The notes under the pieces were generated by a model. The model did not search any database, had not been told where the DNA came from, and worked only from the letters and a program-made list of their open reading frames with translations. A stretch of DNA of 64,000 bases, taken from Escherichia phage EcM-vB1. The translations under genes were made by a program, and so were the position numbers. Below, piece after piece: positions 28,461 to 28,921 of this stretch. The number at the start of each line of letters is the position of its first letter. Position 1 is the stretch's first letter. The stretch lies in sequence record PV574017.1; one strand, given 5' to 3'.

Positions 28461-28485
28461 TTAATATTCTTTTAAATAGAGAATC

Positions 28486-28531
28486 AAAGTCCCTAGGAGT
28501 CCCTACAACCTAAATCAAGGATTCCTTAATT
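28486..28531 (+). terminator. long hairpin followed by T-run
   Basis: TAGAGAAT...ATTCTCTA inverted repeat with internal AGTCCCT direct repeat, then TTTTT. Confidence 0.4.
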
Positions 28532-28853
28532 CTCTATTTTTATCTCGCAGGTGGCTCCTGCCCTTCCGGTAGTCTCTCAATTTCTTACAAACTTATGAGA
28601 GATTGTCGTCTGCGCCTTATCGTCGTCAGTCCCGTGCAATAACTTTATTAGCTATAACTTATATACATTATAGCACTTAGAGATATACTACCATGAAATT
28701 TAACCATAAGTATGCAGCTACAGAAAAAGCCAGAGCTTATGTAACTGCGAGACAGTCTAGGGTTTACAAGAGACAATCTCCAACAAACAACTCTAAAGAG
28801 ACTTTTGTTTGGACAAAACCTACTACCTTTCGGTAGTTCCTACAATACATCTG

Positions 28854-28862
28854 TAATGTATA
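28854..28862 (+). promoter_or_regulatory. putative phage promoter element TAATGTATA
   Basis: perfect 9-mer (TGTAATGTATAAT context) upstream of the SSB gene. Confidence 0.4.
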
Positions 28863-28921
28863 ATATACATAACCGCTCAAAGAGAGCAACAATCTTTCAA
28901 ATTAAATAAGGAAATTAAAAT

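Follow-up and report, generated by a model that had tools for sequence, protein, structure and literature searches.

A candidate leftward gp36-type promoter and a conserved, apparently non-coding cassette back to back with P40 in phiEco32-like phages

The OOP RNA of phage lambda and the sar RNA of P22 are cis-antisense or small non-coding RNAs that are transcribed from dedicated promoters. RNAs of this type overlap a defined target gene or ribosome-binding site (RBS) and end at a clear intrinsic terminator. Promoters are also found at phage replication origins: the primary origin of T7 combines the phi1.1A/B promoters with an AT-rich region, and oriF and oriG of T4 combine a middle promoter with an unwinding element. 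In both phages, the genes downstream are also transcribed from these origin promoters, whose direction is that of the genes. Work on sigma factors encoded by phages has phiEco32, with its sigma factor gp36 and the co-factor gp79, as its reference system.

The published gp36 catalogue lists six promoters, all of which lie before genes (PMC8948821; PMC4281155). P6, P13, and P26 are late promoters, and P40, P58, and P68 are middle promoters (PMC8948821, text and Suppl. Table S3); P68 and P40 are ascribed to earlier work on phiEco32 (Pavlova et al., 2012, as reported in PMC8948821 and PMC4281155). The gp36 promoter consensus, tAATGTAtA, is located 6–8 nt upstream of the transcription start, and gp36 has been described as recognizing a single consensus element (PMC8948821). 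In the cryo-EM structure of the P68 open complex, AATG occupies positions −14 to −11, and the C-terminal domain of gp36 makes essential contacts with −37G and −34A (PMC12276001). For phage SU10, the promoter before the gene 40 homologue has been printed as aagcgtaatgtatactatacataaccgctcaaagagagcaa (PMC4281155, Table S2).

The window analyzed here is a stretch of 64,000 nucleotides from Escherichia phage EcM-vB1 (PV574017.1). Its positions 28300–29000 are 100% identical to the Escherichia phages EcK-vB and EcP-vB and 97% identical to ES17 and myPSH2311, and they match 98 phage records, all of them phiEco32-like phages of Escherichia or Shigella. By these matches, the window comes from a Kuravirus, a phiEco32-like coliphage. 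The locus under study is the gap (28461–28921) between the homologue of gene 41 (28353–28460; 35 aa) on the left and the homologue of gene 40 (28922–29668; 248 aa) on the right, both named after the phiEco32 annotation. Gene 40 carries an ssDNA-binding protein annotation in two records, and downstream of it lies the sigma factor gene 36 (30221–30865). An earlier note on this DNA described the gap as an AT-rich non-coding island, the longest gap of the + arm, that holds hairpins and oppositely oriented promoter motifs. The gap is AT-rich: its GC content is 0.356, against 0.424 for the window, which puts it among the 1.2% of 461-nt stretches that are poorest in GC. The minimum for a stretch of this length over the entire 64 kb, 0.284, is reached at 28020–28480, which covers the phi32_42 and phi32_41 homologues and lies directly to the left of the conserved block described below.

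The label "non-coding" fails for part of the gap. Positions 28693–28836 of the + strand contain a basic ORF of 47 aa (MKFNHKYAATEKARAYVTARQSRVYKRQSPTNNSKETFVWTKPTTFR), which is annotated as a hypothetical protein in ES17. Its codons differ from those of ES17, L096, and L100 at 8, 9, and 9 positions, respectively; all of these differences are synonymous and none is non-synonymous, a pattern that indicates purifying selection on the ORF. About 316 of the 460 bp are thus non-coding, and the gap is the longest of the + arm with the ORF left out but not once it is counted. The ORF lies inside an insertion of ~146 bp that is present only in the lineage of the window and ES17 and is flanked by TACTACC (28686–28692 and 28821–28827), and its stop codon falls inside the GGTAG −35 element of P40. 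Only two database homologues of the ORF were found, and no PHROG family. In one relative (L004), a 2-nt deletion moves its start to a downstream ATG. The ORF has no obvious Shine-Dalgarno sequence and no promoter of its own was identified; the only sigma-70-like match in the vicinity would place the transcription start beyond its ATG. Since the ORF is selected and no promoter of its own was identified, + strand transcription probably reads through the conserved block, and a leftward RNA would therefore be cis-antisense to this read-through.

On the + strand, the TAATGTATA at 28854–28862 coincides with the gene 40 promoter sequence printed for SU10. By this match the site is P40, an already published gp36-dependent middle promoter. 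P40 spans 28832–28869 (+ strand), with GGTAG at 28832–28836 and a predicted start at ~28869, and is followed by the conserved 5′ leader of gene 40 (28870–28921, + strand), which contains a small hairpin (GCTC-AAAGA-GAGC) and the RBS AAGGAAA. The earlier note had pointed to the same 9-mer on the other strand, and a second copy is indeed found at 28662–28670 (− strand). In the window, TAATGTATA has five exact sites against 0.57 expected, and no shuffle reached five; the four sites other than the − strand copy are matches to the SU10-listed promoters P56 (P58 in phiEco32), P37 (P40), P24 (P26), and P11 (P13). When the upstream element is included, the pattern GGTAG-N18-AATGTA has three occurrences in total over the two strands of the 64 kb, where 0.02 would be expected, namely in a P68-like site, in P40, and in the − strand site.

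Several further features of these promoters were observed. GGTAG at −37 to −33 is common to the P68-like site at 18042 (+), to P40 at 28832 (+), and to the reverse site at 28692 (−). The exact-consensus late promoters at 39094 (−) and 55662 (−) have AAGACCTA in common at −37 to −30, and the P58-like site at 22231 has neither AAGACCTA nor GGTAG. The temporal classes of promoter may differ in their upstream element, with GGTAG in three middle-type promoters and AAGACCTA in two late ones. P40 overlaps a near-palindrome, ATGTATA-A-TATACAT (28852–28872), and the − strand from 28872 to 28864 reads TTATGTATA, one mismatch from the consensus, with no GGTAG upstream. At the end of the 47-aa ORF, a perfect palindromic hairpin, ACTACC-TTTC-GGTAGT (28822–28837), provides P40 with its + strand GGTAG; read along the − strand, the palindrome looks like a terminator hairpin with AGGTTTTGTC after it. 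In EcK-vB (L102+L103), a further exact + strand TAATGTATA is located near one genome end, at reverse-complement coordinate 2401.

The − strand site carries all of the sequence hallmarks of a gp36 promoter, so that the oppositely oriented promoter motifs of the earlier note stand, one as the published P40 and the other as a conserved candidate. Its −10-like element, TAATGTATATA (28660–28670, − strand), agrees with the published tAATGTATAtA at 11 of 11 positions, and its upstream element, TGGTAGTA (28686–28693, − strand), places GGTAG (28692 to 28688) at −37 to −33. With G at −37 and A at −34, both sequence and spacing are those of the P68-like site at 18042. The numbering is inferred from the text on P68, where AATGTA occupies −14 to −9 (PMC12276001), and sets TAATGTATATA at −15 to −5.

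Conservation of this site was examined in an alignment of 24 phage genomes (Kuravirus and phages filed under Suseptimavirus and Nieuwekanaalvirus) and six metagenome contigs. In this comparison with related phages, of the kind proposed in the earlier note, 29 of the 30 (all 24 phages and five of the six contigs) have the two elements and the distance between them without any change. The spacer is always 15 nt long, and its sequence varies freely. Motifs that are held at a fixed distance across a variable spacer indicate selection on a bipartite promoter, and chance is effectively excluded as the source of the reverse promoter motif. The sole exception is the contig L096 (ERZ1034915 NODE_75), which reads TAATATATA, with a G-to-A change at −11 (position 28666 of the window). 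Because the rest of the cassette is intact in this contig, the reverse promoter may be dispensable.

No ORF of at least 30 aa starts downstream of the reverse promoter on the − strand, and all six catalogued promoters precede genes. A downstream gene is a common trait of the known gp36 promoters rather than a requirement for their recognition. The reverse site is absent from the promoter tables of two studies (PMC8948821, Table S3; PMC4281155, Table S2), and the published promoter searches looked "in expected locations," i.e., before genes (PMC8948821); the original phiEco32 mapping papers may have noted the site and dismissed it. It is apparently a candidate seventh gp36-type promoter, uncatalogued in the accessible literature.

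The reading that we favor, with a probability of roughly 0.55, is that of a leftward gp36-type promoter which makes a non-coding RNA product; the function proposed for this RNA below is held with less confidence. By P68 numbering, the transcript would start at ~28655, and with this predicted +1 a hairpin opens, AUAGC-UAAUAAA-GUUAU (28639–28655, − strand). Eight sequence versions of the hairpin exist in the clade and all of them fold on the − strand, with the compensatory stems AUAGC/GCUAU, AUAGA/UCUAU, AUAGU/ACUAU, and AGAGU/ACUCU. Three of the versions, which account for 12 of 26 sequences, pair through G.U; since their pairing needs G.U, these 12 hairpins fold on the − strand and not on the +.

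Beyond the 5′ hairpin lies a variable central module (28568–28635, − strand), which is of type A here and includes a hairpin, TCTCTCA...TGAGAGA (~28571–28604). The type A module has 68 nt and is found in the window, ES17, MN05, and ECBP2; phiEco32 and most other members carry in the same place a type B module of 43 nt that is unrelated to A. Folding favors the − strand over the + strand in each of the 26 sequences. The fold difference of the region is −4.7, at the 7th percentile, and among control windows from the + arm the trend is reversed (mean +6.4, sd 7.6 kcal/mol). In the type B alignment, the variable columns are divided into 6 paired and 17 unpaired, against 88 and 48 for the invariant columns (p = 0.0009), a bias that counts for little because RNAalifold itself leans that way.

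By inspection of the sequence, no ATG is present on the − strand in the first ~190 nt past the predicted start, and neither a tRNA nor a tmRNA was found at the locus. The earlier note had proposed a structure search, and here the outcome was negative: Rfam 15 gave no family match in 28461–28660, and the best E-values over 27500–29800 were 1.9–9.5, far under the gathering scores. No complementarity of more than 11 nt to a trans antisense target was found in the window or in the complete relative EcK-vB. A literature search for kuravirus transcriptomes turned up a single study, in which reads were aligned to the host genome only (PMC12803456). Three other candidates were rejected. A 15-aa mini-ORF (28594–28641, + strand) shows, on reading of the sequences, five non-synonymous changes and one synonymous change against ECBP2; judged by eye, the density of CsrA-type GGA motifs is about as composition predicts; and, also by eye, the stem sequence is unlike the I-E and I-F repeats of E. 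coli that a CRISPR-repeat mimic would resemble.

The left part of the predicted RNA corresponds to a conserved block of 96 nt (28472–28567, − strand), which is kept next to either the gene 41 homologue or a phosphoesterase gene. The block is 93.8% identical in ECBP2 and 97.9% identical in KBNP1711, against only 81.5 and 81.0%, respectively, for gene 40 of these genomes, and the block segment is matched in 98 of 98 records with a Kuravirus-type gene 40. The cassette, bounded by the −35 element and the base of the long hairpin, stays intact while the genes on both sides change; because the block is kept whichever gene lies to its left, this unit behaves as a self-contained cassette. The repeats and hairpins of the earlier note are all present. 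The long inverted repeat (28474–28487 and 28526–28539; 14 nt, 93% complementary) falls within a long imperfect hairpin with inner stems (28472–28541, − strand) at the left edge of the block. Inside it lies the direct repeat AGTCCCTA-GG-AGTCCCTA (28488–28505, with the copies at 28488–28495 and 28498–28505), and in ECBP2-type phages both copies lose one C together. To the right follows an invariant 5-bp hairpin (28547–28561, both strands; −7.9 kcal/mol), GCAGG-TGGCT-CCTGC on the + strand and GCAGG-AGCCA-CCUGC on the −, in which variation is confined to the middle loop base.

The strand on which this block acts is less evident than that of the 5′ hairpin. As − strand RNA, the long hairpin forms an unbroken run of 16 pairs (−23.5 kcal/mol), two of which are G.U; on the + strand, these two become the mismatches C.A and A.C (−18.2 kcal/mol). 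Compensatory changes were found in 0 pairs of the block, because the block hardly varies. Among the single substitutions in the long hairpin, one favors the − strand and two favor the +, and the two strands differ little in their z-scores against shuffles (−2.7 and −3.1). Since the thermodynamics and covariation of the block are split between the strands, its strand assignment rests on the promoter and the 5′ hairpin. The long hairpin is unlike an intrinsic terminator (a G+C-rich stem, a 3–8-nt loop, and a U-tract) and is uncalled on either strand: its stem is AT-rich, its interior measures 38–44 nt, and its tail on the − strand is UUU here and UU in ECBP2-type phages. Over several kb of the − strand, the scan called no canonical terminator, so that a discrete 3′ end of the leftward RNA is a conjecture. 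The RNA could end through weak termination at the long hairpin, through processing of the ~23-bp stem, or through Rho in the A/U-rich, G-poor RNA beyond.

Among the other explanations, the one that survives best, although we regard it as unlikely, takes the block for a + strand element at the 3′ end of the P58 operon, i.e., a weak terminator, an RNase III-type processing hairpin, or a 3′ stabilizer. The reverse promoter would then be real and its RNA functionless, and it would block read-through or add negative supercoiling that helps P40. Such an element would account for the start of the block right after whichever stop codon lies upstream, and the long hairpin is followed on the + strand by TTTTTAT; however, the + stem is AT-rich, has a 44-nt loop, and is not called as a terminator, and the folding energy (MFE) of the + strand is unremarkable, with a rank at the 56th percentile among control windows. 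Of the three single substitutions in the hairpin, two preserve pairing on the + strand alone, but the loops are as conserved as the stems, which neither a terminator nor a processing stem needs. The back-to-back arrangement of the two promoters in phiEco32-type genomes, with ~93 bp between their predicted starts, is consistent with an effect of the reverse promoter on P40 of this kind. On the other hand, the covarying hairpin at the reverse +1, with G.U in 12 of 26 sequences, is left unexplained.

The locus could also be a transcription-primed origin, in the manner of the T7 primary origin, oriF and oriG of T4, or RNA II of ColE1, an explanation that we find rather improbable. A leftward primer RNA would form a persistent hybrid in the purine-rich block or in the AT-rich DNA beyond and would be extended leftward by the phage polymerase. 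The candidate promoter belongs to the middle class, that of replication time, and no gene follows it, parts of the predicted RNA are 63–77% purine, and the site lies in the replication and nucleotide-metabolism arm, where it adjoins gene 40 with its ssDNA-binding annotation. The lowest-GC stretch (28020–28480) lies directly downstream in the − direction, but this stretch is coding, ECBP2-type phages lack it and have the phosphoesterase gene right next to the block, and the cumulative GC skew follows gene orientation and turns at ~34 kb, not at 28.5 kb; each of these points weakens the origin. Moreover, a 5′ stabilizing hairpin and a swappable module are unexpected for a primer, and there is no iteron array, only two 8-mers.

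Finally, a DNA-level operator, in which a DNA-binding protein of phage or host would control both promoters from the inverted repeat AAATAGAGAAT / ATTCTCTATTT and from the tandem AGTCCCTA copies at a distance of one helical turn, is very improbable: the primary sequence, "loops" included, is 94–100% conserved, the two 8-mers 10 bp apart change together in ECBP2-type phages, and no covariation in the block demands RNA structure, but in the window the block is separated from the reverse promoter by 115–185 bp and from P40 by >300 bp, its distance to the promoters shifts with module type and insertion, as is unusual for an operator, and no candidate binding protein was identified.

The preferred reading, a leftward gp36-type promoter with a non-coding RNA product, suggests the following course of events. 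As gp36 and gp79 accumulate, RNAP-gp36 would fire from both of the back-to-back promoters. From P40, it would transcribe the gene 40 operon, including the sigma gene 36 downstream; from the reverse promoter, it would make a non-coding RNA from ~28655, of ~185 nt here and ~160 nt in phiEco32. This RNA would be composed of the 5′ stabilizing hairpin, the lineage-variable central module, and a highly conserved 3′ domain ending in the hairpin at 28472–28541. At middle times, the leftward RNA, or its transcription, may oppose, process, or mark for cleavage the read-through from the upstream P58 operon. With this read-through opposed, gene 40 and the sigma gene would depend on P40, and the two middle units would be insulated from each other. 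The small or antisense RNA that the earlier note had offered as one possibility is the best-supported reading, on the basis of sequence, conservation, and one covarying hairpin, and its "regulatory hub" holds in the limited sense that two promoters stand back to back. A bolder and more doubtful extension would have the promoter and the 96-nt block constitute an unrecognized Kuravirus RNA gene, either a replication primer or R-loop element or a modular regulatory RNA. In the regulatory-RNA version, the swappable type A/B central domain may set specificity, and in either version the RNA may be expressed by the phage's own sigma factor.

By its distribution, the cassette of reverse promoter and block is clade-specific. 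A search for a host origin of the element found no similarity in 5,426 E. coli genomes, and when IMG/VR and metagenome contigs were scanned for the exact core, all true matches were kuravirus contigs, the others being chance hits to short patterns. In three metagenomic relatives (L009–L011), whose gene 40 is 67–70% identical, the gap measures 146 bp and holds the forward promoter only, and the element is absent; it is absent as well from Grimontviridae phages, which have gaps of 75–100 bp. The same three relatives carry TGGTAC-N19-AATGGA upstream of gene 40 (~2350–2400), i.e., TGGTAC-N-TAATGGATA, with the same −37 GGTA spacing. This TAATGGATA suggests that their promoter specificity is slightly shifted.

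Half of the present observation, namely P40, was known; as far as the literature shows, the reverse promoter and its conserved cassette are uncatalogued in accessible publications. If the preferred reading is true, the gp36 system would gain a seventh promoter, as conserved as the others and facing the opposite way, that adds a non-coding output to the transcription programme. It would also provide a concrete candidate for middle-operon insulation and for replication start in phages used in therapy work.

Compared with known systems, the locus has partial counterparts. Like a bidirectional terminator, it has a hairpin flanked by an A-run and a T-run where leftward and rightward transcription would meet; unlike one, it has an AT-rich stem, a conserved interior of 38–44 nt, and a short tail on the − strand, and the consensus scan made no call. 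It resembles the origins of T7 and T4 in that a phage-specific, replication-time promoter stands among replication genes with the most AT-rich DNA of the window <200 bp downstream. The reverse promoter, however, runs against gene orientation with no gene downstream, and the AT-rich stretch is not conserved across the clade. The predicted leftward RNA differs from OOP and sar in that it overlaps only an untranslated inter-operon stretch up to the hairpin and has no canonical terminator, and it bears no sequence or Rfam relationship to either. As with these RNAs, on the other hand, a short non-coding transcript is predicted from a dedicated promoter, opposite to the surrounding genes and at an operon boundary, with a predicted 5′ stem-loop and further hairpins after it. 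A further counterpart is found in the gp36 promoters themselves. In contrast to the six listed promoters, the predicted reverse promoter faces against the whole gene arm with no ORF downstream; yet it shares with P68 and P40 the same TAATGTATATA −10-like element, the same GGTAG at −37 to −33 with its spacing, and an intergenic site, and its predicted transcript opens with a hairpin, as is also predicted for the P40 and P58 leaders.
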